A model generated the notes under the pieces. It was not told the DNA's origin and did not search any database. It was given only the letters and a program-made list of their open reading frames with translations. From the IMG/VR virus record IMGVR_UViG_3300021339_000001, positions 1-62,677 of that record: a DNA stretch of 62,677 bases. One strand, given 5' to 3'. The stretch is from a virus. Of the stretch, positions 31,191 to 53,544 are shown in pieces. Each line of letters begins with the position of its first letter. Within the stretch, counting starts at the first letter, position 1. Made by a program: the position numbers and the translations under genes.

Positions 31191-32215
31191 GTGATCATCA
31201 CCTCAAACCACCTCGGGAAGAATGCCGCCGTTACCTCAGGAATGAAATTGACGTGATCGAACAGTGCGCGAATTGTCTCGTAGTACAGGGAGTCGACGTC
31301 GCGTCGATCACTATGCTCGATATCGCGGAGGGCGCTCAAGAACCGACCGGTATGACGGTAGCCGTGCAGCTCGGCTTCGACGTCGTTCCAAGGATCGTGG
31401 TCGTTACGCTTTTGGTGCACCATGGCACCACCAAATTGGACGTACTGGTTCTCCATCTGAGCCAACACATGTTCGGCGACGTAGCCCGCCCAGATGTCGT
31501 CGTACCGTCCAATACCAGGCCAGACTCCCATCAGGATCGCGAGGTCGCCGCGATAGGCCGTCGACTGGCTGTTCAGTGGCGCGAAGATGTGCGGATCGAT
31601 GATCGCCTGACGCGCGTTGCAGACGTGTCGATCACCGCCGGTAACACGGGTGATCGCGTCGACATCGGGATCACCTGTCCACAGGGCTGCGACGACGGCG
31701 ATATCCGACGGCGTCGGAACGTCGAAATCGCGTGTTCCAAACGTGGAGTCGTACTGATCGTATGGCAATCCACGGGCACGTACCGCGGGAGCGCAGAGCA
31801 TGCCGGGGTTGAACAGTCCGCCTCCTCCGCCGATGGGATAGGTCACAGGAAATTGGTGCGGGCCCGACATCGCGTTCTTCACGTGTGTGAAGAAGTCAGC
31901 AGCGGGGACGTTGTCGTCGTCCACGGTGACAATGATACCGGGCCGTAACTCGTGGGCCGCTGCGATCGCGAGATTTCGACGTTGGATCGAGCGCCAACCG
32001 ATCGCCTCGCTGAGCTTGGGCCATCGGTCGTGTTGTTCCTCGGCGGTCAGAAAATCACCACCGAGAGCTTCGACGTACTCCTTAAGCTCGGGATTGGATT
32101 CCTGATCGGCGGCGACGATCAGGTGACCGTGTTGTGCCCACTCCGCGTACGCGGTTGGACGCTTGTTGATGGACGTACTGACGATTATCACATCTGGCCG
32201 TACGTTCTCATCCAC
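31187..32215 (-). CDS. RGP / GT75-like protein (UDP-arabinopyranose-mutase / reversibly glycosylated polypeptide family)
   Basis: DVIIVST...HLIVAADQESNP, IIVTVDDDNVP (DxD) and IGRYDDIWAGYV, compared with plant RGP DIVIPT, YHLIIVQDGDP, TIDDDCF and IGRYDDMWAGW. Confidence 0.65.
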   Translation of the reverse strand: MDENVRPDVIIVSTSINKRPTAYAEWAQHGHLIVAADQESNPELKEYVEALGGDFLTAEEQHDRWPKLSEAIGWRSIQRRNLAIAAAHELRPGIIVTVDDDNVPAADFFTHVKNAMSGPHQFPVTYPIGGGGGLFNPGMLCAPAVRARGLPYDQYDSTFGTRDFDVPTPSDIAVVAALWTGDPDVDAITRVTGGDRHVCNARQAIIDPHIFAPLNSQSTAYRGDLAILMGVWPGIGRYDDIWAGYVAEHVLAQMENQYVQFGGAMVHQKRNDHDPWNDVEAELHGYRHTGRFLSALRDIEHSDRRDVDSLYYETIRALFDHVNFIPEVTAAFFPRWFEVMIT

Positions 32216-38821: not shown

Positions 38822-40660
38822 TCAGCGGTACTTGTCACCCCAGTTGTTCGTCAAGACGTCAGCCGACCACGTGATAGGCACCGCGTAGTTATCACGATCC
38901 GTGCACGTTTCAACGATCAATCGTGCGACCTCTTCGGCGTCTTCGATCGGAACGTCAGCCACGATCTCATCGTGCACCGGCAAGATCATGATACCCGGAC
39001 CAAGAACGGAATCACAGGCGATCAAGTTTTGCTTCAAGATCTCAGCGGCGTGCGACTGAATCTTGTAGTTGACGAGCGTATAGGGCTTGCCGGGCTCACA
39101 CGGCATGTACCGACCAAGAGGTGTGTAGATGAACGGCGGCAAGTTGTGTCGAGCCCCGTTCATGATGCCCTCAGATTCGATGTCGCGCTGCATCTGAAGA
39201 ATGCCGGGGTACGTCGCGTCGAACGCGTCGACGACCATCTTCATGATCTCAAAGCCCACACCCGCGGTGGTCGCCATCTTGCCGACACCAGCACCGAACA
39301 GCTTACCGTAGGTAGCGTTCTTCATAAGCTGCCGACGCGCATCCTTCTTGTCGATCGGAGTCTGGAACGCCTGAGCCGCGAGTCCACAGAAGAAGTCACC
39401 GCCCTGCTCGTCCGCATGTCGGAACGTACGGATCATGCCTTCATCACGTGAGAAGTGCGTCGCGAGGCGTGCTTCGATCTGATCTGCGTCGCACGTAACG
39501 AGCGCGTGATTCTCGCTTGGGATGAAACCGGTGCGGACCGTTGGGTCCTTACGCGGCAACGTTTGGAGAGCAGGATCGGTCATCGACATACGAGATGTTC
39601 GTGTTCCGCACGTCCAGATCGACGGATGGAGCCTGTGGTTGGCGTCCATCATCTCGAGGAAGTTGTCGAAGTAGGGACCGACCGTTTTCTCGAACTTACG
39701 AATCTTCAACAACACGCGACCGATATCGTGGTCGATCGACCCGAGAACTTCCTTGTCGAGTGATCGCGCGCCACCTTGCGTGTATTTTTCTTGATAGGGG
39801 ATCTCATGCGCGTTCAGAACCGCGATGACCTGCTGACTGCTGTTCGCGTTCTGGATTCCGTACGCGTCACGAAGCCACATCTTGGCGTCGCCGACCCACG
39901 CGTTAAGTTCACTACGCTTTCGAACGCAGTACGCGGGATCGATGCGCGCGCCGCGTCGTTCCATGTTGAAGACGGCCTGAAGCGCACCCATCTCGAGCTG
40001 ATAAGTAGCGGCGAACGAGTTCAGAACTGGTGCGTGAAATCGTTCGTAGAGGTGACACGTCAACACCGGATCAAGTGCCGCGTAGATCCAGTAGGCGGGG
40101 ACGTCGATCGGTACGGTGTCGAACGTCCAACGGTTGGTCTTCATGGCGTCGTCGAGCAGACGTTGCGCGGCCGACGCCTTGGGGTCGATCAGCATCGACG
40201 ACAGCGGCTTGAGACCCTTGAGTCGCTGCGGGTCGAGTAGATGTGCCATGGTCATAGTGTCGTGACTGCGGTCCCACGGCCACTTGAACCCAGTGAAGTG
40301 GTTGGTGATGAATCGTGCGTCGAACTTCAAGTTGTGTAACACGATCTCACCACGATACTTGGTGAGAACCTCGCGGGCCAGTCCGCCCCAACCGTCCCAC
40401 GGTAACGCCCAGCCGGTCGACAGGTCACCGAATTGGATCATACGAAGTCGATGCTGCTCAGGTCTAAGTCCTCCGGTCTCGGTGTCAACACCGAGAACAC
40501 GACGGTGCTCGCCGAGCCAGCGCATGAACTCGTTCGCGTCGTCTAGTGTCGTGATGAGATGAAGCTGAACGTCGGCGAGTGGACTCGTGGCAGGTGCTCG
40601 ATCGCCTGCCTTGACAAGTTCGGTCACCAGGCGTCGATGATCCAGAGAAAGATCGTCCAA
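38822..40660 (-). CDS. DNA polymerase I (family A) with 3'-5' exonuclease domain
   Basis: Exo motif VDTETGGL, motif B RRQLMKNATYGKLFG, motif C LPVHDEIV. Confidence 0.9.
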   Translation of the reverse strand: MDDLSLDHRRLVTELVKAGDRAPATSPLADVQLHLITTLDDANEFMRWLGEHRRVLGVDTETGGLRPEQHRLRMIQFGDLSTGWALPWDGWGGLAREVLTKYRGEIVLHNLKFDARFITNHFTGFKWPWDRSHDTMTMAHLLDPQRLKGLKPLSSMLIDPKASAAQRLLDDAMKTNRWTFDTVPIDVPAYWIYAALDPVLTCHLYERFHAPVLNSFAATYQLEMGALQAVFNMERRGARIDPAYCVRKRSELNAWVGDAKMWLRDAYGIQNANSSQQVIAVLNAHEIPYQEKYTQGGARSLDKEVLGSIDHDIGRVLLKIRKFEKTVGPYFDNFLEMMDANHRLHPSIWTCGTRTSRMSMTDPALQTLPRKDPTVRTGFIPSENHALVTCDADQIEARLATHFSRDEGMIRTFRHADEQGGDFFCGLAAQAFQTPIDKKDARRQLMKNATYGKLFGAGVGKMATTAGVGFEIMKMVVDAFDATYPGILQMQRDIESEGIMNGARHNLPPFIYTPLGRYMPCEPGKPYTLVNYKIQSHAAEILKQNLIACDSVLGPGIMILPVHDEIVADVPIEDAEEVARLIVETCTDRDNYAVPITWSADVLTNNWGDKYR

Positions 40661-40730: not shown

Positions 40731-41315
40731 CTACTTGGTCTCGCTTACGGAGTTCAGGTTGTCCGGCGGATTCATCGTGTTGAATCGGTTCCACCTATAC
40801 TCCTCATAGTGATAGCGGGGCCACGACCCATCGTAGTCATTCATAGCATGGGCAACGGTAACACGCACACCGCTGTCGTTGAGGATCGTCCGACCTTCTT
40901 CAGGTCGAAGATGCGTCTCGTTCGGCGAGATCAACATCACAACGCGTGCGACACCAGAGTTCGCGGCTAGCTTAGCGCAGGTCAGACAGCACGACGTCGT
41001 GGTGTACAGCGTGCCGCCGACGTAGTCTCGTCGATCGGCGAATAGCATGGCGTTGGCCTCGGCGTGGATCGCGACGCAGTTATCGTGATCAGCCCTCAGC
41101 TCCTGCGTACGCCCGCGTTGGCAGAACGACGCGCAACCGGGCAACAACACCGAGACAGATGCGACCAGACCGGCCGGCGGGCCGTTGTAGCCCGTCGCTA
41201 CCGGTCGTTGACTGGCGTCGACGATCACGGCGCCTACCTGTCGGTTGGTGCAGCGCGAACGCAGCGCGATCGACGACGCGATGCTCAGCCAGGTGTCATC
41301 CCACGAAGGTCTCAT
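40731..41315 (-). CDS. dCMP deaminase
   Basis: Zinc motifs HAEANA and CCLTCAKL. Confidence 0.85.
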   Translation of the reverse strand: MRPSWDDTWLSIASSIALRSRCTNRQVGAVIVDASQRPVATGYNGPPAGLVASVSVLLPGCASFCQRGRTQELRADHDNCVAIHAEANAMLFADRRDYVGGTLYTTTSCCLTCAKLAANSGVARVVMLISPNETHLRPEEGRTILNDSGVRVTVAHAMNDYDGSWPRYHYEEYRWNRFNTMNPPDNLNSVSETK

Positions 41316-41464
41316 CCGAGTAACTCGTCGTTCATGATCTCGTCCACCAACTCCTGTTGCTCCGCTTTGGTTAAATACTTAGGCCAGATACATGGGTTCT
41401 GACAACTGTGCGGATACGTCACGCACTCTTTATGACACCCACATTCATCGCGTTTATCTTTCAC
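41312..41464 (-). CDS. Cys-rich small protein (50 aa)
   Basis: Hand translation VKDKRDECGCHKECVTYPHSCQNPCIWPKY.... GTGA overlap with the hydroxymethylase-like stop and ATGA overlap with the deaminase start. Confidence 0.5.
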   Translation of the reverse strand: MKDKRDECGCHKECVTYPHSCQNPCIWPKYLTKAEQQELVDEIMNDELLG

Positions 41465-42327
41465 GGATTAACCCACTCGCTGAGAAGTCCGTCGAAGTCG
41501 GGGACGACGACTTTCATAAGCTTTGGATTGTACGTAAGCTCGTGCGCACGATTCATGATCATGGTCCACCGCATACGCGGTGGAGTAGTTAACTGTCTAC
41601 GTATATCCGCACCAAGTCCGTTATTTGGCACGATCGGATAGTCGATTCGCGTCACGAAATCAGAGTTGACTCGCATAGCTGCTTCGACATCCTTGTCGTA
41701 CAGATGCAACGAGTCGACGACGTGCGTGTACTCACCCTGTTCGACGTTGAGCGCGTTTGCCATGCTGGCGTGCAACGTGGTGAACTGAAACGAGTCATAC
41801 GGCCAACCCATGTGTAGGTCGTTGCTCCGCATATGTGTCGTCATGTGGAGATGATAACGACGAAGATGCCACGACAGGTACACCGTGCACGGGTAGTCGT
41901 TTGCGTCGTCGTGAAACAGGTCCCACGACGGATCCCAGATCGTCGCGACGGCACGTCGTGTCTGGGGCGATTCGTCGAGACGAGTGATCACACGTGGGAT
42001 CTGCGCGCGAAGTCGTGGACCATACGCACCGTGGAACGTGCCGCCGTCCATGTAGGGACGTGTTGCTGGCGACAACGACTGCATTCGCGTCGGATCACTG
42101 AAGCCGCCTACGAGTTGAAGTGCCTCGATCGCGGCAAGCTTGACGTTCAACGACCGGCCTACGCCGACCATAAGCGAGTGCTGTGGATCGCTCAAGATGG
42201 TAGTGACGTTGCGCAGTTCGTACGTGCTCATACCGCGAGGCGAAACCTTCTCACCCTGCGTCAGAAGAAGCGACCGAAGTTTCTCGTACGCGTCGGCGGC
42301 TGTCGTCGCTTCGACCAGGTGTGCCAT
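41461..42327 (-). CDS. ThyA-fold deoxynucleotide C5-modifying enzyme with dCMP-hydroxymethylase signature
   Basis: ORF trimmed to MAHLVEA (gagagga RBS). Motifs SPRG, QTRRAVATIWDP, catalytic YPCT, and MRSNDLHMGWPYD with Asp at the ThyA-Asn177 / T4 gp42-Asp179 position. Confidence 0.7.
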   Translation of the reverse strand: MAHLVEATTAADAYEKLRSLLLTQGEKVSPRGMSTYELRNVTTILSDPQHSLMVGVGRSLNVKLAAIEALQLVGGFSDPTRMQSLSPATRPYMDGGTFHGAYGPRLRAQIPRVITRLDESPQTRRAVATIWDPSWDLFHDDANDYPCTVYLSWHLRRYHLHMTTHMRSNDLHMGWPYDSFQFTTLHASMANALNVEQGEYTHVVDSLHLYDKDVEAAMRVNSDFVTRIDYPIVPNNGLGADIRRQLTTPPRMRWTMIMNRAHELTYNPKLMKVVVPDFDGLLSEWVNP

Positions 42328-43207
42328 ATGCGATCCTCTCGGCGTACTCAATGCCCCTGTGGTGGGCAAATCGCCGAACCCACTGCGGGTGCGGTACGTG
42401 GTGATAAGGAATGTGGTTATCTCGTACGACACGCAGCGCCGACTGCCCCATGGCAACGACACGTGGTTTCCCTAACGCTCTCCACAGAGCACGGAGGTTG
42501 ATCTCCTCCAACGCGTTCGCGAGTCCGTAGTTGGTCGCCTGGATCGCCTCCAGACGATCCAGTAAGAACTCGCCGCTGGTGCCCCCGAAGGGCACGAACG
42601 CACTGGGGAAGTTCGCGTTGTTACGCCGTTCACCGAGCAACAGCAACTCAGGTTGTGTCGGACCGACGTACGTGGGCCACTCAGCGCTCAGATCTTTGAC
42701 CGCGTCGGCGCGACGTCGGGCGGCGTTGATCATCTTAGGGACGGTCTCAGACGTGACGGTGTCCACGAACGAGTAGCGTTCCGCGGCGCAGTGGAACCGG
42801 TAAAACCGCCACACCTGTTCGACGTGTGTTGGGTGAAGAAGGTCGTCACCGCGATCCCAGAGTCGCTTGCGGACGATGTGCAACGGCGTGTCCATAACGA
42901 CGCGTAACGCACCACGCGATCGAAGAAAGAGTTCCACGTGTCGATTCATCGCGGGAGTGAGTTTACTGAGTCCGCGGTAGAGTGGGCCGTACACAAGTTC
43001 GCCGACGTGCCAGCGATCGCAGATGATGTGGTGTCCGTTGTCTGGGTGATAACTGAGAAGTCGTGCCTCATATTCGACCAACGGATGATCGACCAGTGGA
43101 CCACTCGAGATGACCTGCACCGATCCCTGGCCGGTTAGCGCGTCGACGAGGGCGCGGATAAGTGTTGACTTACCCGCGCCGTCGATACCCTCAACGACGA
43201 TCAGCAT
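42251..43207 (-). CDS. Thymidylate-kinase-like P-loop dNMP kinase fused to a UDG-superfamily-like domain
   Basis: N-terminal VVEGIDGAGKST and ICDRWHVGELVY. C-terminal LLLGERRNN...FVPFGGTSGEFL and VPHPQW resemble the UDG family-4 GExPG...HPS motifs, with substitutions. Confidence 0.6.
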   Translation of the reverse strand: MLIVVEGIDGAGKSTLIRALVDALTGQGSVQVISSGPLVDHPLVEYEARLLSYHPDNGHHIICDRWHVGELVYGPLYRGLSKLTPAMNRHVELFLRSRGALRVVMDTPLHIVRKRLWDRGDDLLHPTHVEQVWRFYRFHCAAERYSFVDTVTSETVPKMINAARRRADAVKDLSAEWPTYVGPTQPELLLLGERRNNANFPSAFVPFGGTSGEFLLDRLEAIQATNYGLANALEEINLRALWRALGKPRVVAMGQSALRVVRDNHIPYHHVPHPQWVRRFAHHRGIEYAERIAYGTPGRSDDSRRRVRETSVASSDAG

Positions 43208-43658
43208 CGTTGTGATCTTCGATCTGCACCTCGAGAAGGAGTTCGCCGAACGCGGTGTGCCGAACGCGCGTCTGGTGGAACCCGTGCGCCACGATCGTCG
43301 ATTGAACGAGGTTGCTCCACCACTGATATGCGGTGGTCAACATGATCGCGGGTGTCGGACTGAACGCCGCGATCTGCGTCCACTGATGTTCCATCTCGAC
43401 GGTCTTGGTTTCGTCCCAGTATGCGCCCGCGGATGGCGCGGCGTGGTCGTAGAACATGGCACCATCGAGAATGCGATCGTGTCCCATCTCGAGTTCACAG
43501 AAGTGTGTAAGCGGGTTCTCTGGGTCGGCTGACATACACCGATTACCGCGCTCACCTGTTTCATGAATGTAAGGTGGTACCCGTGCGGCGTCGAGTTCGT
43601 CACTGAACTCGTCGGGCTGCGTTGTCTCCATCGTCATTTCGTCACCTTCTTGGATCAT
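43191..43658 (-). CDS. Hypothetical protein
   Basis: ATGA coupling to the upstream stop. Confidence 0.6.
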   Translation of the reverse strand: MIQEGDEMTMETTQPDEFSDELDAARVPPYIHETGERGNRCMSADPENPLTHFCELEMGHDRILDGAMFYDHAAPSAGAYWDETKTVEMEHQWTQIAAFSPTPAIMLTTAYQWWSNLVQSTIVAHGFHQTRVRHTAFGELLLEVQIEDHNDADRR

Positions 43659-44260
43659 TCGTCGTCGGCGTCGGGTCCTGGAATGTGAACGATCTGCGCC
43701 TGCTCGGCACCGGCGACCGTGGTGATCAACATGGGAATGAAGTAGGCGAGATCCGTGGGATCTGTGATGCTGTCGATGAACGCGTCGTACGTGGCGTCAC
43801 ACTCAGCGTGTTCGTGGTTCAACGCGTGCGTCACGCACTTCATCGCAGTGTCACGGATGTGATCGGGTACAGCGGCGTTGGCGTCGTAGTTGGCCAGAAC
43901 GAGGAGGGTGTCGGGTGCCATGTTTCCTCGTTCGATCATCATGTTGCCGATCATACAGCATCGGCTGAACCCGGCGCATACGAACGCGGTGTACCGTTCG
44001 GAGATCTCGTCGATGCCGAGTTCCTGTCCGCCTTTGGAGACGTAGGCGTCGAACGTATGCTGTGCCAACGGTGCGATGTTCTGCTGAACGCCGATGATGC
44101 ACATGTGCATCGCAGTGGTGGCCTCCTGCGAAAGTGCGGTCAGACGTTGCCGTTCGTCGGGAGTGAGATGCGCGAACGGCTCCGGCAGTTCGAGTGCTTG
44201 GCCATCGTCGCCGATCTTCTGGTCGATCGAGTGGAGGAGACGACTCAGTTCGTCGTCCAT
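43655..44260 (-). CDS. Hypothetical protein
   Basis: ORF trimmed to MDDELSRLL, TGATG-coupled to the stop of 44260..44556. Confidence 0.6.
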   Translation of the reverse strand: MDDELSRLLHSIDQKIGDDGQALELPEPFAHLTPDERQRLTALSQEATTAMHMCIIGVQQNIAPLAQHTFDAYVSKGGQELGIDEISERYTAFVCAGFSRCCMIGNMMIERGNMAPDTLLVLANYDANAAVPDHIRDTAMKCVTHALNHEHAECDATYDAFIDSITDPTDLAYFIPMLITTVAGAEQAQIVHIPGPDADDE

Positions 44261-44556
44261 CACACGTTGTCCGTCTGACTGGGCGCGTCCAGCGTCAACG
44301 TGACGCCGGGGTAGCGCGTCACCAACGCGTTGTGCGCGGCGTTCTGCGCCTGACTCAGCGCTCGCAGGATCGCCTCCAGGATCGTCGAGTCGTCGGCGTC
44401 GTCGGACAACGGTGTCGACTCGGTGACGTTCGTACCCCAGTGCTGATTCCACCCCCTGTCGGTGGAGATCGAGATGTTCACGTAGGCGTTGGCGTCGACT
44501 CGTTCACGCGTGGGTGCGGGTGGTTGCGGTTGCGCCATGTTCGTCTCGCCACTCAT
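44260..44556 (-). CDS. Hypothetical protein
   Basis: ORF track. Confidence 0.55.
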   Translation of the reverse strand: MSGETNMAQPQPPAPTRERVDANAYVNISISTDRGWNQHWGTNVTESTPLSDDADDSTILEAILRALSQAQNAAHNALVTRYPGVTLTLDAPSQTDNV

Positions 44557-44577
44557 GTTGTGCGTCCTTTCGTCAGT

Positions 44578-45084
44578 TCAGTTCACGTATTCGACCTGCG
44601 CCGCGGTGCGCAGGTCGACATCTTGCTGGATGGCCGTCGCGAGTGCGTCACGTGCCACCTTGATGAGGTACCGCGTGCCGTTCTCGTCGCGCCGGTACAA
44701 CGTGGCGATGGCACCGGACGCGGTGTCGGCGATGTGCGTCGAGTGGATGTCACGCTCCAAGCGAATGATACCGGATTCGCCTAGATCGGTCAGTGCGACG
44801 TCGGCGTCAGGCCAGCATAGGGGGCAGCCGACCAACTCGGCGTGCCGCGGGTCGCGCATTGCCTCGCTGATCGCGGTTTCGGCTCCACGAGTGCACGGTC
44901 CGTCGACGCGATGGAACACCACCGATCGACCGATCTTGGTCGTGAGATACGTGCCGGACTCGGTGCGGTAGATCGCGACCTCCGTCCAACGCAGCGCGTC
45001 GCCGTCGTCGCTTGTCGCTCGTCCGAGCTCCACGCCTATGAATTGGATCCTGCGATCACCGTCGATCAACTCGTGTTCAGGCAT
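44578..45084 (-). CDS. Hypothetical protein
   Basis: ORF trimmed to MPEHEL (ggag RBS). Confidence 0.55.
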   Translation of the reverse strand: MPEHELIDGDRRIQFIGVELGRATSDDGDALRWTEVAIYRTESGTYLTTKIGRSVVFHRVDGPCTRGAETAISEAMRDPRHAELVGCPLCWPDADVALTDLGESGIIRLERDIHSTHIADTASGAIATLYRRDENGTRYLIKVARDALATAIQQDVDLRTAAQVEYVN

Positions 45085-45121
45085 GGTCGCTCCGTCTCTG
45101 GTCGTTCGATCGATCACCAGT

Positions 45122-45955
45122 CTAGTTGACGACGCGAGGAAACTGCTCGCTTTCCTTGAGCACGAGAGTCTGGATCTCGCGATCAGAGACGTACGCGTTC
45201 CACGCCTTGATGATCAACCCGAGCTGGTGAAGACGGGCGTTGCTACGACGTCGGTTCTGGCCGAGGCCGATGCGAAGAACGTGTCGCCGAGGGTCGTGGA
45301 TGCTGAGACCGGCGCCACTCTCGACGCCACTCCAGAAGTCCATCCAGCGCTGACTACCGCGCGTGAGGTAGATCGCCGCGCAGACGACCGACTGGGCTAG
45401 CTGGCACTGCTTGCCGACGCGCATCGCCTGCGCGACGTAGTCACCAAGGTCGGGACGCTTCTCCAGCTCGTGAAGGACGGTGAGGTTCGTCATGCCGCCG
45501 CGAACGGCACGTGCCGTCTTGCCCGCGATTCGGTCTTCATACTGCACGATCATGCGAACGGCGGCGGTGATCGCGATGCTGTTCTCGCCGCCCGTCATGG
45601 TTAGGTAGTCGTTGATCGACCTGGGTCGTCCGGCGTCGATTGTCGGCACCATGTCCAACGGGACGTTGTATGCCACGGTGAACTCGATCGTGCAGCCCGA
45701 TGCGATCACCGCGTACAGGCGATGCTGTCCGTCGACGAGCTTGCCGTCGGGCGACATCTTGATGGTCTCGCCGTTGTTGACCCACCCGCCGGACAGCATG
45801 TCTTCGGTGTACGCCGTGACGCGCGCCTTGTTCACCCGACGATTCGCGATCATGTTCTCGAGCATGTACGTCGCGAGCTGCGGGTCGATCTTCTCGTTCC
45901 TAGTTTCCACCTCAGGCAGCAACTCCACCTTGGGTGACTTGGCTCTCGTTACCAT
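45122..45955 (-). CDS. ParB-like nuclease-domain protein
   Basis: KLVDGQHRLYAV motif. Trimmed to MVTRAK because the longer start lies upstream of the predicted TSS. Confidence 0.65.
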   Translation of the reverse strand: MVTRAKSPKVELLPEVETRNEKIDPQLATYMLENMIANRRVNKARVTAYTEDMLSGGWVNNGETIKMSPDGKLVDGQHRLYAVIASGCTIEFTVAYNVPLDMVPTIDAGRPRSINDYLTMTGGENSIAITAAVRMIVQYEDRIAGKTARAVRGGMTNLTVLHELEKRPDLGDYVAQAMRVGKQCQLAQSVVCAAIYLTRGSQRWMDFWSGVESGAGLSIHDPRRHVLRIGLGQNRRRSNARLHQLGLIIKAWNAYVSDREIQTLVLKESEQFPRVVN

Positions 45956-45998
45956 GTCATGTCCGTTCGTCGTAGTCAGTAGGCAGTTATGTCGATCG

Positions 45999-46029
45999 GG
46001 GTGCGGTGGCGTCGGTCGCGCCACCGCAC
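45999..46029. other. Perfect 12-bp GC hairpin in the leader of the ParB-like gene
   Basis: Stem ggtgcggtggcg / cgccaccgcacc with a 7-nt loop. Confidence 0.7.
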
Positions 46030-46043
46030 CTCGATCAACTGAC

Positions 46044-46073
46044 ACGCTAATCGTCGATGCCGACGATTGTCAA
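46044..46073 (-). promoter_or_regulatory. Early promoter P7 (TTGACA-N18-TAGCGT) with an 8-bp-arm palindrome in the spacer
   Basis: Plus strand reads acgcta...tgtcaa. Palindrome aatcgtcg-atgc-cgacgatt spans 46049..46068. Confidence 0.65.
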
Positions 46074-46082
46074 CAGCAGTTC

Positions 46083-46847
46083 TCAGGCCTGCGGATTGGT
46101 GACCTTGAGGGTCACCACCGCGTCGTCCCGCGAGTTGAACCGCCAGTCCGAATCGAGACCGACGTCGCTGAGGTACATCATCGAGTTGTTGAGCGTGTTC
46201 AGCAGGTCGGCGCCGCGGAGATCCTTGAGCCGACTCCGCCGGGCCGTCACTCCCCGGACCGTCCGGGTGACGGTCATCGTCAGGTCGAACGTGCCCTCGC
46301 CGTTCAGCTCGGCCACGGCCTCCCGCGGTCCGTTGATCATGGCGACGGCCTCGTCGACCACGGAGCAGTAGCCGTGCGCGTTCTTGAGCCCCATGGCGAT
46401 CAGGTCGACCTTGTGGGCGTAGTCGGTGGCGTTGCGCGCCACGAGCACGACGTCGCCGACGGGTACGGTGGTGACCTCACCGAGCGAGTCGACGATGGTG
46501 ATCGACTCGTTCGCCGGGTCGTCGTCCGGGACGATGGCGATGATCGTCTTCAGGCCGTCGTCGTGTCGGACGATCGCGGTGATCGGAAACCGCTCGGCCA
46601 GTTCGATGGGTTCCGCGGCGATCACCCGCGCGTCGGCGCTGTTGTCGATGTCGAGCATGGTGTTGTTGTCCCTTCGTCTGATGGTGTCACGTTCACGTAG
46701 GTAGTCCATCTCTTCTTCGGCAGAACGCCGTCGAGAGATGGCTTCTTGCTCGTGGCGATGGTTGGAGACGGCTCGCGTAACCGTGATCACGGCGATCACC
46801 CCGATCGCCCCGATCAAGATTATGATCGGTACGACGTAGTCGACCAT
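46083..46847 (-). CDS. Hypothetical protein with N-terminal TM helix
   Basis: ORF track; VVPIIILIGAIGVIAVITV. Confidence 0.55.
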   Translation of the reverse strand: MVDYVVPIIILIGAIGVIAVITVTRAVSNHRHEQEAISRRRSAEEEMDYLRERDTIRRRDNNTMLDIDNSADARVIAAEPIELAERFPITAIVRHDDGLKTIIAIVPDDDPANESITIVDSLGEVTTVPVGDVVLVARNATDYAHKVDLIAMGLKNAHGYCSVVDEAVAMINGPREAVAELNGEGTFDLTMTVTRTVRGVTARRSRLKDLRGADLLNTLNNSMMYLSDVGLDSDWRFNSRDDAVVTLKVTNPQA

Positions 46848-46853
46848 GAACGA

Positions 46854-47198
46854 CTACTCCGTGTCGGTGGTGTCCGAGTCGGTGTCGGTGTCGCCGACGG
46901 TCGTGGTGGCCGCGTCGTCCGCCTCCGACTTGACCGCAGCGGTCGTCACGAAGTCGCGCAGCGCCTGCACGGCGATCTCCTCGTCCGCGTCCAGGACGGA
47001 CTCCTGGACCCAGTGGTTCCGGGTACCGAAGTTGTTGACGAACTGCGCGACCTGCTCGAGCTGCCACCTGTCGGCCTTGGTGAGCAGGACGGTCAGTCCC
47101 TGCAGGACGGCCTCGCGCTGCTCGTCGGACGTGACGAGAACCTGCTCGCCGTCGGTGTCGAAGCCGGGTGCGGTGGTGGGAGCGTCGTTCTCCAACAT
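46854..47198 (-). CDS. Acidic hypothetical protein
   Basis: ORF trimmed to MLENDAP (aaggaga RBS). Confidence 0.6.
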   Translation of the reverse strand: MLENDAPTTAPGFDTDGEQVLVTSDEQREAVLQGLTVLLTKADRWQLEQVAQFVNNFGTRNHWVQESVLDADEEIAVQALRDFVTTAAVKSEADDAATTTVGDTDTDSDTTDTE

Positions 47199-47291
47199 GT
47201 GTTCTCCTTGATCGGTCTGGTCATCTTCAGGACGGGTTACCACCCGCCGACGCCTACGTCTCACGACGAGCGCGTTTCGACCTGGACGTCG

Positions 47292-47495
47292 TCATCTACC
47301 TTCGTTCAACTCACCGCGTATGTGATCACTGACGATCAACTTGCTGCCCGGAAATGTGACGATCTCGACCTCCTGACTTGTCTTGACACCACTGGGATAC
47401 GTCATGACCGTGATGTGGTACCCGGACTCACGCGAACCGTCGATCAAGACGACGTCGGCTTCGGGCCAGACGATCGACGCGTGGATGTCCGGCAT
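47292..47495 (-). CDS. Hypothetical protein
   Basis: ORF track; 1-nt overlap with the upstream stop. Confidence 0.55.
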   Translation of the reverse strand: MPDIHASIVWPEADVVLIDGSRESGYHITVMTYPSGVKTSQEVEIVTFPGSKLIVSDHIRGELNEGR

Positions 47496-47848
47496 CAGTC
47501 GGTCGGCCGATCGGTCGTGTCGAGCACGAGTCGGTACGCGGCGTCGAGTAGGACGCTCTTGGGGTCACTGGAGTCCAGGTTGGCGTCCAACATGTCAAAC
47601 GACGTGTGATTGTACGCGTACTCGATCGCCTCTTCGCCCGTCATACTGGGCCAACCTTCGCGAACGTCGGCGACCACCAGTTTCACCGCACGGTCGAACG
47701 GCATAAGGACGGTCGGCGCGGAGGACGACTCCTTGATCAGGGTGAGAAGATGTTCCCTGAACAGATCGCGAGCCATCTCCCACCAGACGCCGTCCGTCTG
47801 GTCGTCGGGCAGATTGGTGATCGCCCGGCGGAACTCCTTGAGGTCCAT
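47495..47848 (-). CDS. Hypothetical protein
   Basis: gaaggga RBS, with promoter P8 just upstream. Confidence 0.6.
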   Translation of the reverse strand: MDLKEFRRAITNLPDDQTDGVWWEMARDLFREHLLTLIKESSSAPTVLMPFDRAVKLVVADVREGWPSMTGEEAIEYAYNHTSFDMLDANLDSSDPKSVLLDAAYRLVLDTTDRPTD

Positions 47849-47883
47849 CGCGTCGCTGTCCCTTCGTCGTTCGTCCTAGTGAA

Positions 47884-47913
47884 ACGCTATCAGGTCATAT
47901 CAGGTTGGGTCAA
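47884..47913 (-). promoter_or_regulatory. Early promoter P8 (TTGACC-N18-TAGCGT, TG-extended)
   Basis: Plus strand reads acgcta-N18-ggtcaa. The motif cctgatagcgt is shared with the plus-strand promoter at 55737..55766. Confidence 0.6.
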
Positions 47914-48416
47914 ATCGCGTCACCAAGCAGTTCGCGGGCGACGTCCAGGTCGTGGGAGGTACACCCGCAGTCGCCCAGATAAGGCGTGACGACACTGCCC
48001 AGGAGGAAGCTCGCGCAGTCGGCGATGATCTCGCGGTCGAACTCGCGCGCTAAGCCAAGTGCGATCTGACGGCGGTGCGCGTACTCATGGTTCACCACGC
48101 TGGGTAGGACCTGACACGGGACCGACGTCGCGATCTCGACGGCGCCCGTTACGGTGTCGGTCGAGCCGAACCAGTTCGGCGGCAGATCGGACGACATCGT
48201 CCACATGGCGGGATCGTCGCCCAGTTCCACGACGCGTGCGTGCATCAGCGCCGACCGGTCGCAGCGCTCGGCCCAGTCGAACGCTGCGGCCTGCGCCTCG
48301 GGGTTGCTGGTATCCACCGGACAGTCCGCGCTGGTGGCCTGGAGAGGATTACAGAGCACGACGACGCCGATCGCGAGGGACGCCGCGACGCCAGCGAGGG
48401 AACGTTGAAGTAGCAT
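47910..48416 (-). CDS. Secreted HExxH metallopeptidase-like protein
   Basis: Signal peptide MLLQRSLAGVAASLAIGVVVLCNPLQATSA. Motif VNHEYAHRRQ. Confidence 0.6.
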   Translation of the reverse strand: MLLQRSLAGVAASLAIGVVVLCNPLQATSADCPVDTSNPEAQAAAFDWAERCDRSALMHARVVELGDDPAMWTMSSDLPPNWFGSTDTVTGAVEIATSVPCQVLPSVVNHEYAHRRQIALGLAREFDREIIADCASFLLGSVVTPYLGDCGCTSHDLDVARELLGDAI

Positions 48417-48429
48417 GACGTGTGTCCTA

Positions 48430-48534
48430 TCAGAGTATGAGACGAACGTAGTTGACGAGAACGATGGCCGAGAGGGTGATCGACAAGACCACGGTCATCC
48501 AGGGAAAGGGTTGACCGCGCGTCAACGGAGCCAT
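48430..48534 (-). CDS. Possible 34-aa membrane peptide
   Basis: Hand translation MAPLTRGQPFPWMTVVLSITLSAIVLVNYVRLIL. Confidence 0.3.
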   Translation of the reverse strand: MAPLTRGQPFPWMTVVLSITLSAIVLVNYVRLIL

Positions 48535-48923
48535 GAGAGGTACGATTCGGGGCAGCACTTGTCGCAGATGCAATCCCAACTACACCGCGCCTGGGTAGGT
48601 TCGTCCAGGTCGGCTCGCGCTGGCACGATTTCCACGTGTCCGTTCTGGTCGAGCAACACGTTCGCGCGTTGAATGGCTTCGGTCGTCCGCGAACGCCAAC
48701 CGTGACTGCTGGGTCGATAGTCGTCGGATAACTTGCTGTACTCGATCGCCACCGCCTTCGCCAACCTGAGCGTCCTGGTGATGCAGCCGATGTCCGAGAC
48801 CATGTTGATCGGCAACATTCGAATCACCAAGTGCCACTGACGGCCATCATGGAAGATCACGTAACTACGGGTGTCATCCTGCGTGGTGTAGTTGCCGACA
48901 TCCTTGTTGCGGGTGAACTTCAC
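48522..48923 (-). CDS. Hypothetical protein (C-terminal Cys cluster)
   Basis: ORF track; CSWDCICDKCC. Confidence 0.55.
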   Translation of the reverse strand: MKFTRNKDVGNYTTQDDTRSYVIFHDGRQWHLVIRMLPINMVSDIGCITRTLRLAKAVAIEYSKLSDDYRPSSHGWRSRTTEAIQRANVLLDQNGHVEIVPARADLDEPTQARCSWDCICDKCCPESYLSWLR

Positions 48924-48950
48924 GTCGATCTCCGTCGATTCATCGTCAAA

Positions 48951-49124
48951 TCAGGTGGTGGCAACCGACTCGACCTCAGCGACGTGGAACGTGCGCTGAA
49001 CGCCCGCGCCGTCGAGACCGACGAAGAACCCGTCGCCGTCGGGCGAGGTGGTGGCGGTGCAGCCGATGTCGTCCATCGTGCTGAAGACCGACAGCGCTTC
49101 GATAGTGTTCTCGTCCTCGTACAT
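48951..49124 (-). CDS. Hypothetical protein (57 aa)
   Basis: Hand translation MYEDENTIEALSVFSTMDDIGC...; acggagga RBS. The two track ORFs in other frames are Arg-rich artefacts. Confidence 0.5.
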   Translation of the reverse strand: MYEDENTIEALSVFSTMDDIGCTATTSPDGDGFFVGLDGAGVQRTFHVAEVESVATT

Positions 49125-49305
49125 GGTGTCCTCCGTCGATTTCGTCGTCGTTCATCAAAGGGTTCAACCAACGGGGAGCCTCTTGGTCACCCGATCTTCC
49201 TGACGGGAAGGGATCGAGCCCGACCTGGTCGGTGAGCCCCCGTGGGGACGCCTACCAAGAGGTACCTCGCTGGTCGAACGTTGTTGCGTTTGCCTGACGA
49301 GACGA
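49125..49305 (-). ncRNA. Unusually long (~175 nt) structured 5' leader or embedded small RNA
   Basis: All sister promoters have 26-45 nt leaders. This one contains a 9-bp long-range helix cctcttggt / accaagagg enclosing at least three hairpins. Confidence 0.45.
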
Positions 49306-49334
49306 ACGTTAGCCTGAGTTGTGAAACATGTCAA
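49306..49334 (-). promoter_or_regulatory. Early promoter P9 (TTGACA-N17-TAACGT)
   Basis: Plus strand reads acgtta-N17-tgtcaa. Confidence 0.7.
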
Positions 49335-49534
49335 ACCCGCAGATACAGGCCCGTGACGAGACGATCTGCGCGCGTCGCGAGCAGTCCGACTGACGCCAAC
49401 GCGTCGGCGTAGCTGTCGGCTTCCACGGTGATCCGGTGGTGAGCGGTCTGCGCGCCGTACAAACGCAGCGCGACGATTCCTAACTTCAAGTCATCATGCG
49501 TCGAGACGGTCACGTCGAAGATGAAGACAGTCAT
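49331..49534 (-). CDS. Hypothetical protein (67 aa)
   Basis: ORF trimmed to MTVFIFDV, ATGA-coupled to the upstream stop. Confidence 0.55.
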   Translation of the reverse strand: MTVFIFDVTVSTHDDLKLGIVALRLYGAQTAHHRITVEADSYADALASVGLLATRADRLVTGLYLRV

Positions 49535-49785
49535 ACTACGCGAGCGACGTCGAACGCAAGCAGCGGGCACGTCACGTAGCACGCGTTGAGATGTGAGTTT
49601 AACGTGACGCACGTCGGGCAGTCCTCGACCAGTCCTTCTTCGACGGTCTGAGCGTCCGACAAATCCACTCCGCAGAAGGCGAACCGAAACTGCTCGTTGA
49701 CGCAACATGTCAGGTGACAGGCGTCGTCGTCGATCTCCTCGGATTGCGCGGCATGAGTTTCAGCGTCGGCGCTGACCTCGAGCAC
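49531..49785 (-). CDS. Acidic Cys-rich hypothetical protein; first gene of the minus-strand arm
   Basis: ORF track; GTG start. Confidence 0.5.
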   Translation of the reverse strand: MLEVSADAETHAAQSEEIDDDACHLTCCVNEQFRFAFCGVDLSDAQTVEEGLVEDCPTCVTLNSHLNACYVTCPLLAFDVARVV

Positions 49786-49933: not shown

Positions 49934-52276
49934 ATGAGCGACCACCAGGATAATATCAGGTTAGGCGACGCACTTCCTGACCCGGCGCATTTCCTATCTT
50001 ACGCGCTGTATCACGCGTCTCGCGATATCGCGGTCTTCCCACTGACGCGCAACGGCCGACAGCCTGCGATCCGTCGCTACTTCGAGCGCGCAACGTCGGA
50101 CGCGGACGCCATCCACGGGTGGTGGGGACCCAGTGGCTCGCACGTCGGCTGCAACGTCGGGATCGCGACCGGCGCGGAGATCGCGACCGGTCAACCGGTC
50201 TGGTGCCTGGACGTCGACAACAAACACGGGCACAACGGCGACGCGGCGCTGCGTCAACTCGAGGACGAACTCGGTGCGCCGCTGCCTGCGACGTACGCCG
50301 AAGATACGCCGAACGGTGGTCGTCACCTGCTGTTCCGCTGGCCGGCCGGTCGGGAGGTCAAGTCCTCCGGCGGTGAACTCGGCGACGGACTGGACGTCCG
50401 CGGTTATCGCGGCGTCGTGTTCGCCGCCGGTTCGGTCGTCGATGGCCGCGCGTACGTCGTCAGCGCGAACCTGCCGATCGCCGACGCGCCGGACGCGCTC
50501 GTCGACCTGGTGGAGCGACGGACCCGCGAGTACGCCGTGGACGGCGTCGTACGCGAGCTCGCGGATGGCGAACACCGTCGCGTCGTCGCGTACGGCGAGA
50601 ACGCGCGTCGCGCGGCCTGCGAGCGACTGGCGAACGCGCAGCCCGGCGAGCAGAACAACGAGCTCTTCAAGTTCGCCCGGCAGATGTCCGAACTAGGTCA
50701 GCACGGTCTGTTCACTCGGTACGAGATCTGGTGCGACGCCACGGAGGCGATGACCGAGAACGGCTACCTGCTGGATGATCCCGGTGGCTCGTTTGAGCGC
50801 ACGTTCAACTCCGGTTGGGATAACGCCGAACCGCGCGCGCCGTGGCCGCCGTGGCCGTCCGATGCTGCACGAATCGAATCAGGTGAGATCGAGGTGTGGC
50901 CCCCACCGCAACGTCCGGTGCTCGTCGCTCGTGAGTTGATCGCACGCTGGAGCGATGCGACCGACTGGCTGCTCAGACGTCGGTGGCGGCAGTGGTGGCT
51001 GCGCTACGACGAGGTCGCGCATCGCTGGATCAAGGAAGAGAACGATAAGATCATCTCTAACTCGGTGTGGACGTCACTCGAGCACGCCGTGTACGGGCCG
51101 GAGCGTCGTGACTGGAACCCGTCCATTAAGAACGTCGCCAACGTCGTCAGCGCGTTCGAGTCGTTCGCGTCGTTGTCGTGGCATCAAGAGTCGCATACGT
51201 GGATCGAGCAACCCGACGGCTACCCACCAGCCGAGTCGATGATCGTCGTCAAGAACGGGCAGTTGCACCTGCCGAGTCGCTCGATCTGGCCGCACGATCC
51301 GCGACTCTTCAACCACGTGTCACTGCCGTTCGACTACGACCCGCAGGCACCCGCGCCGAGTCGGTGGTTGCGGTTCTTGAACGAACTCTGGCCCGACGAT
51401 CCCGTGCAGCAACTGATGCTTCAGGAGATGTTCGGCTACATCATCTCGGGGCGAACCGACCTGCAGAAGATCATGTTGTTGATCGGTCGACCACGATCGG
51501 GTAAGGGAACGATCTCGTGGGTCCTGCGGCAACTGCTCGGCTCCGCGGTCGCCGCACCGAGCATGGGCTCGCTCCGCACGCAGTTCGGCCTCCAGGATCT
51601 ACTTGATAAGTCGCTGGCCATCATCGGTGACGCGCGTATCTCAGGTGACACACAACCGCTGATCGAGCGACTGCTGACCATCTCGGGTGAGGACATCGTC
51701 ACGGTCGATCGTAAGAATAGGTCGCCTCTCAGCGTCGTGCTGACCGCGCGCTTCTTGATCTTGACCAACGAGGAGCCGGTGCTCCGCGACGCGTCGGGCG
51801 CGATGGCCAGTCGGTTCGTGCCGCTGCGGCTGCGTCAGTCCTTCCTGGGGCACGAGGATCTACGACTGAAGGCGACGCTGCGACCGGAGCTGCCCGGCAT
51901 CTTGACGTGGGCGCTGGACGGCCTGGATCGACTGCTCGCGCAGGGGTCGTTCACGTTGTCAGAGACGTCGAACGAGTTGATCGCCGACATGACCGATTCA
52001 GGAAGTCCGATCGGCGCGTTCGTCCGCGAGTGCTGCGTGCTGGGCGGTCAGCATGAGGTACCGCGAGACAAGTTGTACGACGCCTGGCGGAACTGGGCGA
52101 TCCGCAACGACGTTCCGCCCAGCGACAACGCGCGATTTGGGCGGAACCTGCGTACGGTCGCCGACGTGCGAACCCTCCGTCGGGGACCGGCCGGTTCTCA
52201 GGTTTACCACCATGGTGGGATCGACCTGACCGACGAGTATCAGGCACCCACCTGGAACTTCACAGTTCCCGGCTAA
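49934..52276 (+). CDS. Bifunctional primase-polymerase / D5-P4-type helicase
   Basis: 780 aa. N-terminal prim-pol motifs (CLDVDNKHG, GGRHLLF) and C-terminal Walker A GRPRSGKGT. Confidence 0.85.
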   Translation: MSDHQDNIRLGDALPDPAHFLSYALYHASRDIAVFPLTRNGRQPAIRRYFERATSDADAIHGWWGPSGSHVGCNVGIATGAEIATGQPVWCLDVDNKHGHNGDAALRQLEDELGAPLPATYAEDTPNGGRHLLFRWPAGREVKSSGGELGDGLDVRGYRGVVFAAGSVVDGRAYVVSANLPIADAPDALVDLVERRTREYAVDGVVRELADGEHRRVVAYGENARRAACERLANAQPGEQNNELFKFARQMSELGQHGLFTRYEIWCDATEAMTENGYLLDDPGGSFERTFNSGWDNAEPRAPWPPWPSDAARIESGEIEVWPPPQRPVLVARELIARWSDATDWLLRRRWRQWWLRYDEVAHRWIKEENDKIISNSVWTSLEHAVYGPERRDWNPSIKNVANVVSAFESFASLSWHQESHTWIEQPDGYPPAESMIVVKNGQLHLPSRSIWPHDPRLFNHVSLPFDYDPQAPAPSRWLRFLNELWPDDPVQQLMLQEMFGYIISGRTDLQKIMLLIGRPRSGKGTISWVLRQLLGSAVAAPSMGSLRTQFGLQDLLDKSLAIIGDARISGDTQPLIERLLTISGEDIVTVDRKNRSPLSVVLTARFLILTNEEPVLRDASGAMASRFVPLRLRQSFLGHEDLRLKATLRPELPGILTWALDGLDRLLAQGSFTLSETSNELIADMTDSGSPIGAFVRECCVLGGQHEVPRDKLYDAWRNWAIRNDVPPSDNARFGRNLRTVADVRTLRRGPAGSQVYHHGGIDLTDEYQAPTWNFTVPG

Positions 52277-52562: not shown

Positions 52563-52604
52563 GACTATCCTAACTATCCGAGTAATCCTAGAACTAAGGA
52601 CGTT

Positions 52605-52817: not shown

Positions 52818-52832
52818 GCGTAGACTGACATC

Positions 52833-53542: not shown

Positions 53543-53544
53543 TA

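Follow-up and report, generated by a model that had tools for sequence, protein, structure and literature searches.

The uncultured virus of IMG/VR record IMGVR_UViG_3300021339_000001 (positions 1 to 62,677, the whole stretch analysed, hereafter the window) carries a block of four minus-strand genes at 40731-43207, one of which encodes a protein with the fold of the thymidylate synthase (TS) ThyA. This ThyA-fold protein is very probably a deoxycytidine monophosphate (dCMP) 5-hydroxymethylase, based on its residues at three active-site positions, on Ser and Arg residues of the deoxyribose type and on its nearest characterised relatives, which are hydroxymethylases. We further consider it probable that the block and the genes lying 8-14 kb downstream on the same strand form a pathway that makes, and then decorates, 5-hydroxymethylcytosine (hmC) DNA. 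An original prediction, made from the sequence of the window, had placed four minus-strand genes in this interval, and the listing of open reading frames (ORFs) gave the same coordinates for them:

40731-41315, minus strand: dCMP deaminase, 194 aa; Pfam PF00383 (dCMP_cyt_deam_1) at 1.1e-18, phrog_174 at 2.9e-46; HAEANA and CCLTC zinc motifs
41312-41464, minus strand: Cys-rich ORF, 50 aa, 6 Cys, GTG start
41461-42327, minus strand: ThyA-fold enzyme, predicted dCMP 5-hydroxymethylase, 288 aa; PF00303 (Thymidylat_synt) at 4.8e-18, phrog_5131 (thymidylate synthase) at 7.3e-47
42251-43207, minus strand: fusion of a kinase and a domain resembling uracil-DNA glycosylase (UDG), 318 aa

The ThyA-fold protein was aligned with E. 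coli ThyA (identical to PDB 1aob), T4 gp42, SPO1 gp29 and the TS homologue of phage Xp12, the last of which was found via published quantitative PCR primers and served as negative control, as the DNA of Xp12 contains 5-methylcytosine. Conservation was counted over 119 close database relatives, and positions follow E. coli numbering (Ec). All motifs quoted in the original prediction are present, namely AIHAEANA and SCCLTC in the deaminase and DYPCT, HMRSND and WPYD in the ThyA-fold protein. The latter has Asp at Ec143, Cys at Ec146, Thr at Ec147 and Asp at Ec177, each identical in 119/119 relatives; the columns of Arg21, Glu58, Tyr94, Arg166, His207 and Tyr209 are also kept in the window protein and in 119/119 relatives. 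In the alignments with gp42, gp29 and ThyA, the Asp of WPYD falls on E. coli Asn177 and T4 Asp179, so that the specificity position is indeed occupied by Asp and not by Asn. WPYD matches the columns of FRND in T4 and of LPFN in E. coli, and the Asp of MilA aligns there too; SPO1 gp29 and E. coli have Asn in the Ec177 column. The local T4 gp42 string used in the earlier comparison, MRSNDVVFGFRND, had been quoted correctly.

The residue three before the catalytic Cys is Asp in the window protein (NDYPC), in 119/119 relatives and in T4 gp42, SPO1 gp29 and MilA, and it is Leu in E. coli ThyA and Asn in the Xp12 dCMP methylase (KNVPCP). In the T4 dCMP hydroxymethylase (dCH), an Asp or Glu at three residues before the Cys was proposed to activate the substrate water for hydroxymethylation, exchange of Asp145 for Asn (D145N) abolishes activity, and in thymidylate synthases the corresponding residue is Leu (PMC6400193). 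A deoxyribo substrate is indicated by Ser in MR(S)ND and by Arg, not Lys, in the xRR contact (PMC5175136). Both deoxyribose-type residues occur in the window protein (the Ser of MRSND and the Arg-Arg of QTRRAV), and MilA has MRAND and DSKRAV at these places. The proposal of a cytosine hydroxymethylase working within a T4-like logic holds up, and the sequence tests that were run favour a cytosine-specific, deoxyribose-specific hydroxymethylase over a thymidylate synthase.

An ordinary set of thymidylate synthase, dTMP kinase and dCMP deaminase that boosts dTTP is a very improbable account of the block. JGI and GenBank do label the homologues thymidylate synthase and thymidylate kinase, and the Pfam and NCBIfam matches are to TS models; yet all scores against the NCBIfam TS models are far under their cut-offs (e.g., 78 bits vs 174), and Asn177 is replaced by Asp, His147 by Thr and Leu143 by Asp. 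W80 and W83 are absent as well: no Trp of the window protein aligns in the ThyA Trp80/Trp83 region, where close relatives have Phe, Tyr or Val. The C-terminal region is unrelated to the ThyA tail that closes on folate. That the protein does not look like a thymidylate synthase, as first claimed, is thus borne out by Asp, Thr and Asp at Ec177, Ec147 and Ec143 and by the low NCBIfam scores. Family scans of the window ORFs detected no dihydrofolate reductase (DHFR) and no second TS.

The best PDB sequence match of the enzyme is MilA, a CMP hydroxymethylase, at 4.2e-20. With blastp, SPO1 gp29 scored 117 bits (31% over 265 aa), the Xp12 protein 54.7, E. coli ThyA 45.4 and T4 gp42 38.9 bits (25% identity over 114 aa), and T4 dCH was not among the 60 best PDB matches listed. 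The close match to gp42 noted earlier is therefore real at the local motifs, but overall the enzyme is nearer to gp29 and MilA. Orthology with T4 gp42 was rejected because gp29 and MilA score far above it over the full length. Judged from its sequence, the enzyme is a gp29/MilA-like hydroxymethylase scaffold carrying an Asp cytosine switch. It shares with MilA of Streptomyces rimofaciens and with SPO1 gp29 the Asp three before the Cys and a long C-terminal extension of non-TS type. It shares with MilA the cytosine-specifying Asp, but MilA has Ala and Lys where the window protein has Ser and Arg (PMC5175136), whereas gp29, a dUMP hydroxymethylase, differs in having Asn at the specificity position. 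The second-best match among solved structures, at 9e-17, is a protein of 234-238 aa deposited as 'thymidylate synthase' (PDB 9iqu/9iqc). In the alignment it apparently carries Glu three before the Cys, with Asp at the specificity position, which makes it a probable further dCMP hydroxymethylase; a literature search found no paper on these two entries.

An Asp at Ec177 by itself sets only cytosine specificity, and a thymidylate synthase carrying the N177D or N229D exchange becomes a dCMP methylase (work cited in PMC8670742). The enzyme might accordingly be a dCMP methyltransferase that turns cytosine into 5-methylcytosine (5mC), as in Xanthomonas phage Xp12, which likewise combines an Asp177 TS homologue with a neighbouring dCMP deaminase and a MazG-like domain homologous to that of the window; that the window module includes a C5-methylase-like gene also hints that the phage tolerates 5mC. 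We regard this possibility as improbable. The Xp12 enzyme has Asn three before the Cys and is TS-like elsewhere (RTGT, Trp80), it is paired with a neighbouring DHFR, and sugar genes are absent from that phage; the window protein has Asp and none of these TS-like features. The nearest characterised relatives of the window enzyme are hydroxymethylases, and on 5mC the sugar-donor and transferase genes described below would have no hydroxyl to act on.

The longest ORF of the ThyA-fold gene spans 41461-42462 (333 aa). We placed its likely start at the ATG at 42327, which yields 288 aa, because a GAGAGGA Shine-Dalgarno sequence precedes this ATG and alignments with homologues begin at residue ~4. 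The JGI call P0001 (256 aa, start 42231) begins 32 codons too late and loses a conserved N-terminal helix. Translational coupling had been predicted for all four genes. In its classic 4-nt form it is seen for the ThyA-fold gene and the small ORF, which share GTGA, and for the small ORF and the deaminase gene, which share ATGA, but only for these; the kinase and ThyA-fold genes overlap by 77 nt when the latter starts at 42327.

The same genes recur together in other phages. The order kinase, TS homologue, deaminase and family-A polymerase is found in Actinomycetia phage DSL-LC01, Gordonia phages Phendrix and GMA2, Micrococcus phage Kurnik and the metagenomic contigs L004 and L005, and the TS homologues of the two Gordonia phages have both Asp residues. 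The gene order of Kurnik (OR756649, L076 4133-18238) resembles that of the replication module of the window, and its corresponding slot holds a 249-aa enzyme of the gp42 type, with SNYG, DFICT and MRSND...ND near-identical to the active-site strings of T4 gp42. Other products of the Kurnik module are a deaminase, a kinase resembling Tmk, a MazG protein 42% identical to that of the window and two proteins annotated as glycosyltransferases. By analogy, the gp42-type enzyme in the corresponding position argues for its functional equivalence with the window enzyme. A literature search retrieved no paper on phage Kurnik and no experimental report of hmC in actinobacteriophages.

The gene upstream of the ThyA-fold gene had been described as a Tmk-like kinase. 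This is accurate for the N-terminal P-loop kinase domain, which turned out to be fused C-terminally to a family-4 UDG-like domain, so that the protein divides as follows:

42698-43207, minus strand: P-loop nucleotide-kinase domain, predicted 5-hydroxymethyl-dCMP (5hm-dCMP; dNMP) kinase, residues ~1-170, GIDGAGKST P-loop
42308-42694, minus strand: UDG-like domain, residues ~172-300, delimited with AlphaFold2 (AF2) and Foldseek
42251-42307, minus strand: low-confidence C-terminal tail, inside the 77-nt overlap with the hydroxymethylase gene

For the kinase domain, Pfam Thymidylate_kin (PF02223) matched at 3.2e-6 (27.4 bits vs a cut-off of 27) over the 26 residues 5-30 only, phrog_761 (thymidylate kinase) matched at 1e-17, and the NCBIfam dTMP kinase model gave 31.5 vs a cut-off of 83. 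The AF2 model of the whole 318-aa protein, built with 41 homologues, has two domains (pLDDT 93, pTM 0.90), with pLDDT ~50 from residue ~301 on and below 50 at residues 304-312. The best Foldseek matches of the whole protein are SPbeta YorR (2axp, 3kb2) and thymidylate kinases, with E from 1e-5 to 5e-4.

Modelled alone, the C-terminal domain (129 residues) again reached a pLDDT of 93, and Foldseek against the PDB matched it to the family-4 UDG 1l9g at 5.7e-5 with probability 1.00. TMq values were 0.58-0.71 to 1l9g, 1vk2 (0.71), 1ui1 and UdgX, and the domain of the phiLo PolA-UDG fusion was matched as well. The Pfam UDG model gave weak matches in 9/23 family members (best E 0.0016). The likeness to UDGs rests on fold comparison, since its sequence profile, when run against the sequences of the PDB, returned noise only. 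Family-4 UDGs have the consensus GE(A/G)PG in motif A and HPS in motif B, and four Cys ligands hold their 4Fe-4S cluster. The domain of the window has GERRN (of the GE type, with the Glu kept), an invariant Asn and HPQ; it contains no Cys within residues 172-300, and therefore no Fe-S cluster, and with 129 aa it is shorter than the 188-215 aa of the matched solved UDGs. A profile search of 1.84 billion representatives returned 739 cluster representatives at E<=1e-10, and nearly all of the best-scoring representatives listed are 300-350 aa long with the UDG-like domain at the C-terminus. The kinase-UDG fusion is thus the standard architecture of a large, uncharacterised family. In Kurnik and in marine contig L081, a kinase lacking the UDG domain adjoins the hydroxymethylase gene. 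Possible roles of the UDG-like domain are excision of uracil or 5-hydroxymethyluracil (hmU), tethering to the replisome, or the handling of hmC in DNA. Identification of the C-terminal domain as an aGPT-Pplase was rejected, as its fold is that of a UDG whereas aGPT-Pplases have a helix-hairpin-helix fold (PMC8989533), and no support was found for the fusion being a 5-HMUDK-like DNA kinase (cf. thymidine hypermodification).

At the other end of the block, the assignment of the first gene to the dCMP deaminases agrees with its Pfam and PHROG matches and its zinc motifs. A deaminase gene likewise adjoins the TS homologue in DSL-LC01, Phendrix, Kurnik, Xp12 and marine contig L079. The predicted 50-aa Cys-rich peptide is also there, with its six Cys and its coupling to both neighbours; it matched no Pfam or PHROG family, had no tblastn match in 66 related IMG/VR loci and is not evidently conserved. 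Small Cys-rich or CxxC ORFs occur in the kinase/hydroxymethylase/deaminase cluster of L004 (1180-1395) and L006 (4783-4962) as well as in the window (41312-41464), with mutually unrelated sequences and at slightly shifted positions; in L004 and Phendrix, the position of such an ORF is similar to that in the window.

Hydroxymethylase and deaminase might instead act in series, 5hm-dCMP being deaminated to 5-hydroxymethyl-dUMP, so that thymine and not cytosine would be replaced. The translational coupling of hydroxymethylase, small ORF and deaminase genes, whose order is conserved in relatives, would suit such a route, as would the absence of a phage thymidylate synthase from the window; dCMP deaminases can accept 5-substituted dCMP. 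Adjacency to a deaminase is not diagnostic, however, as it is also seen in Xp12, whose DNA contains 5mC. Moreover, in the hmU phages known so far, the deaminase supplies a dUMP hydroxymethylase of the Asn type (SPO1 gp29; PMC8989533), and no dUTPase or thymine-exclusion enzyme of the dTMPase type was recognised in the ORFs scanned. Replacement of thymine therefore appears quite improbable, and we retain hmC as the predicted product.

The remaining genes of the proposed pathway lie downstream of the block:

38822-40660, minus strand: family-A DNA polymerase, immediately downstream of the 40731-43207 block
32208-33527, minus strand: 439-aa protein ('GT439'), putative GT-B-like DNA glycosyltransferase
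31187-32215, minus strand: GT75-family NDP-pyranose mutase homologue (MtdL-like)
30189-31190, minus strand: GDP-mannose 3,5-epimerase (GME) homologue
29759-30199, minus strand: MazG/PRA-PH-type nucleotide pyrophosphohydrolase, predicted dCTPase
28420-29772, minus strand: C5 cytosine DNA methyltransferase-like protein

The closest cultured relative of the polymerase is that of Micrococcus phage Kurnik (44% identity), and PF00476 is found on the polymerase homologues in L004 and L005. The MazG-like protein matches Pfam PRA-PH PF01503 at 4.4e-16 and phrog_671 at 3.1e-29, and has homologues with 35-42% identity in Kurnik (42%), marine contig L079 and Xp12 (QNN97215). In all three, the MazG homologue lies ~0-12 kb from an Asp177 TS homologue, and in L079 it is ~1.4 kb from a gp42-type enzyme. 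Cytosine in Xp12 is reported to be fully replaced by 5mC (PMC8670742). Since Xp12, with a homologue of the window protein beside its methylase, reportedly modifies C completely, it is reasonable to predict that the MazG-like protein acts as a dCTPase. The Xp12 gene in question (MT664984, L009 21208-21981) is annotated 'hydrolase (HAD superfamily)', adjoins the dCMP methylase gene and encodes a MazG-like domain in its N-terminal half, which is 35-37% identical to the window MazG (E 1e-14 to 1e-17); this protein could plausibly serve Xp12 as its dCTPase. The accessory enzymes had been called unrelated to those of T4. Measured against known systems, this is not so for the MazG-like protein, whose homologues accompany the enzyme that modifies cytosine in Xp12, in Kurnik and in a marine T4-like contig; the kinase and the sugar enzymes do differ from those of T4.

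A MazG-like NTPase and glycosyltransferases had also been placed 10 kb from the block. The MazG-like gene is there, whereas the other genes proved to encode a GME homologue, a GT75 mutase and one weakly supported transferase. The GME homologue matches plant GME over the full length (PDB 8sg0 at 5.9e-85, 2c59 at 4.8e-84), vs 1e-21 for GDP-fucose synthase, and Pfam Epimerase at 2e-41. The GT75 homologue matches PDB MtdL (7yua/7xpr) at 1.1e-24 with phmmer. MtdL converts GDP-L-galactopyranose to GDP-L-galactofuranose, and the GT75 signature consists of DDD, the nucleophilic Arg159, Asp195, Ser228, Gln229, Arg257 and Asp260 (PMC9937993). The window protein keeps DDDN at the DDD motif and Arg159, D195, S228, Q229, R257, D260, R289 and H292. 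A GME homologue together with an MtdL-like mutase also recalls the sugar donors of A201A and hygromycin A (MtdL and Hyg20 GT75 mutases), although here the genes belong to a phage replication module and D87 and H287 are exchanged for Ile and Gln.

The 439-aa protein matches Pfam Glyco_trans_1_2 (PF13524) weakly, at 0.0037, as do 7/31 of its family members (best 4.3e-5). With hhalign, the family aligned weakly (E 3e-4, 39% probability) to residues 264-333 of T4 beta-glucosyltransferase, the nucleotide-sugar-binding end. No PDB match was obtained for it by single-sequence or profile search, and NCBIfam had no match for it or for the GT75 homologue. The GT439 family is carried by 66 IMG/VR loci, in which hydroxymethylase, deaminase and kinase-UDG genes are present wherever the flank reaches, and in which a variable cassette of 0.5-3.6 kb lies between the transferase and the C5-methylase-like gene, usually with a GT75 gene and often with an SDR gene. 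The SDR varies, being GME-like in ~7 of these loci and an SDR with 23-28% identity in others. The 66 loci form one syntenic viral clade, and co-occurrence counts within it are confounded by shared ancestry. Consequently, we rejected them as independent functional evidence and used a separate lineage instead, namely Pseudoalteromonas phage XG4 and marine T4-like contigs, which hold a distant GT439 branch (24% identity over the full length). There, no more than a few kb separate the GT439 gene from a gene for a gp42-type dCMP hydroxymethylase in XG4 and in 2/3 marine contigs; a sugar-1-phosphate nucleotidyltransferase gene occurs in XG4 and two marine contigs, and a Tmk-like kinase gene in XG4 and one contig. 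The XG4 transferase alone as query retrieved no relatives from IMG/VR. As GT439 stands beside dCH genes in two unrelated phage lineages, its tie to hmC tips the balance slightly towards DNA glycosylation.

The sugar genes could have nothing to do with DNA and could serve the glycosylation of virion proteins or of the host envelope, leaving plain hmC in the DNA; this would be compatible with hmC itself. The weak transferase assignment and the confounding of the 66-locus co-occurrence by ancestry leave room for this view, and actinobacteriophages are known to glycosylate virion proteins. The genes are, however, embedded in the operon for replication and nucleotide metabolism, flanked by a DUF669 single-stranded-DNA-binding (SSB)-like gene and the MazG-like gene, GT439 genes are found near those for gp42-type hydroxymethylases and sugar nucleotidyltransferases in XG4 and the marine T4-like contigs, and Kurnik has two glycosyltransferase genes and MazG at the same place. 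We therefore hold a function apart from DNA to be unlikely, though it deserves to be kept in mind. If the transferase acts on hmC, the donor may, as a tentative suggestion, be an L-hexofuranose, most parsimoniously L-galactofuranose, for which the GME and GT75 proteins of the phage would convert GDP-mannose of the host. We know of no previous case of a furanose, GDP-sugar-derived DNA base modification.

The protein encoded at 28420-29772 matches Pfam DNA_methylase (PF00145) at 2e-19 and has the motifs FGGGF, PPCS (motif IV, not PCQ), ESV (motif VI, not ENV), RKRY, REVARIQGFPD and GKGVPV. Its gene is found in 52/66 related loci, mostly just past the sugar cassette, and a PF00145 gene adjoins or lies near the GT439 homologue in XG4 (L077 5363-6580) and in marine contigs L079 (9257-10480), L080 (7068-8000) and L081 (10485-11471). 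Motif IV is PC(S/A) in XG4 and L079, and the other two marine gene calls are N-terminally truncated. In L081 (9239-11471), a homing endonuclease gene of the GIY-YIG type (SegE-like) lies between the transferase and the methylase-like gene, and the absence of the N-terminal motifs from the latter suggests a split or disrupted gene. A more speculative extension of the proposed L-hexofuranose decoration would be that GT439 pairs with the PC(S/A) methylase-fold protein, a combination that is also kept alongside gp42-type hydroxymethylases in marine T4-like phages. The methylase-fold protein and the kinase-fused UDG-fold domain would then be base-flipping or activating partners on hmC-DNA, and not a methylase and a uracil glycosylase.

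Based on these assignments, the following order of events can be proposed. The MazG-like enzyme would hydrolyse dCTP to dCMP, which the hydroxymethylase, as its residues and homology suggest, would convert with methylene-tetrahydrofolate (methylene-THF) and water to 5hm-dCMP and THF, a reaction for which DHFR is unneeded. The kinase domain would then produce 5hm-dCDP and a host NDP kinase 5hm-dCTP, which the phage PolA would insert in place of dCTP. As the phage itself lacks a TS, some dCMP would be turned by the deaminase into dUMP, from which the host would make thymidylate. Once the DNA is replicated, the 439-aa transferase would glycosylate hmC, the weakest step of the scheme, with a GDP-L-hexose donor obtained by conversion of host GDP-mannose to GDP-L-galactose by the epimerase and to the furanose by the mutase.

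Several considerations weigh against this scheme, beginning with the fact that the evidence throughout is homology and gene context. The hydroxymethylase of the window (H-G-A-Y-G) has no Ser or Thr at the place of T4 Ser94, two before the catalytic Tyr, which was proposed as a second hydroxymethylase signature; directly before the Tyr, the Ec93 column of the relatives holds Ala in 108, Gly in 8 and Ser in 3. SPO1 gp29 (N-A-P-Y), a genuine hydroxymethylase, likewise has no Ser or Thr two before the Tyr, and T4 S94A keeps ~25% activity (PMC6400193). Substrate specificities of the MazG-like enzyme and of the kinase are predictions, and MazG homologues were detected in only 2/66 related loci within the flanks examined. 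For the sugar branch, the assignment of the 439-aa protein as a glycosyltransferase is weak, and the targets of the sugar genes might in principle be the virion or the cell envelope. In the GT75 homologue, D87, which contacts C6-OH, is Ile, and the Mn-ligand H287 is Gln, with a His one residue earlier; given these two exchanges, its sugar specificity may differ from L-galactose/L-fucose. Finally, substitution of every cytosine at C5 would leave the product of the conserved C5-DNA-methylase-like gene nothing to methylate, and no nucleases of the T4 kind or Alc-type functions, which make replacement complete, were recognised. Either replacement is partial or the methylase-like protein has another role. 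Of the replacement of cytosine originally predicted, hmC thus stands as the expected base, but complete replacement does not follow from the genes, and the C5-methylase-like gene urges caution.

The predicted succession of dCTP exclusion, hydroxymethylation, phosphorylation, incorporation and glycosylation is that of T4 (gp42, the dNMP kinase gp1, the dCTPase gp56, Cd and the alpha/beta-glucosyltransferases). The two systems also share the deaminase, Asp at the specificity position, Asp three before the Cys, and the strings DFMCT (T4) or DYPCT (window) and MRSND...D. They differ in that the window hydroxymethylase is not a gp42 orthologue and has no equivalent of Ser94, in that the window kinase resembles YorR and Tmk and carries a fused UDG-fold domain, and in the predicted donor, a GDP-L-hexose made by the phage vs host UDP-glucose in T4. 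The transferase of the window is related to beta-GT very distantly at most, and the virus itself is a siphovirus with ~60% GC.

A second precedent is MetaGPA (Yang et al., eLife 2021, PMC8670742), in which cytosine-modified phage DNA was selected experimentally. The TS homologues on modified contigs mostly had Asp177, position 147 (His in E. coli TS) was the other top discriminating position, and PRA-PH and dCMP-deaminase domains were found alongside such homologues. The branch pursued there was that of a carbamoyltransferase, leading to 5-carbamoyloxymethylcytosine (PMC8670742). Modules of this make-up are thereby established as markers of phage DNA with modified cytosine in metagenomes. The window shares Asp177, a non-His residue at 147, PRA-PH and dCMP deaminase with these modules. 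It differs from them in having no carbamoyltransferase gene and in having GME, GT75, GT439, kinase-UDG and C5-methylase-like genes.

The logic of the pathway thus has precedents in T4 and in the link that MetaGPA found between Asp177 TS homologues and modified DNA. What is new is the hydroxymethylase lineage (a gp29/MilA scaffold with the Asp switch), the kinase-UDG fusion, the genes for a GDP-mannose-derived furanose donor, a candidate family of hmC transferases that marine T4-like phages also have, the recurrent methylase-like partner and the host range. If confirmed, T4-style cytosine replacement would extend to a large uncultured clade of high-GC, actinobacteriophage-related siphoviruses. 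Modified DNA of such phages resists restriction enzymes and some sequencing chemistries, which makes it relevant to phage-host arms races, to bias in viromics and to enzyme tools for hmC mapping. Micrococcus phage Kurnik offers a cultured proxy in which part of this reading is directly testable.

The clade is uncultured and related to actinobacteriophages, and comprises at least 66 IMG/VR contigs; no cultured member carrying the GT439 transferase was found. A megablast search of the 2.5-kb block against 50,697 phage genomes gave no match; the clade has no close cultured relative. The original description of the virus as a high-GC siphovirus is confirmed by ~60% GC across the whole window and by a structural module of the siphovirus type (large terminase, portal, major head protein, major tail protein and a 964-aa tape measure), and the virus is actinobacteriophage-related. 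This module is followed by a long minus-strand block of replication and nucleotide-metabolism genes. About 12 ORFs with no Pfam family lie at 43191-49708 on the minus strand and at 52464-62491; one of them, at 43191-43658, overlaps the start of the kinase gene by 17 nt. A LuxR-type regulator is encoded at 56167-56565 and a DUF7873 protein at 61745-62491. On the plus strand, a gene for a primase-polymerase/D5-type helicase (49934-52276) faces the minus-strand replication block.

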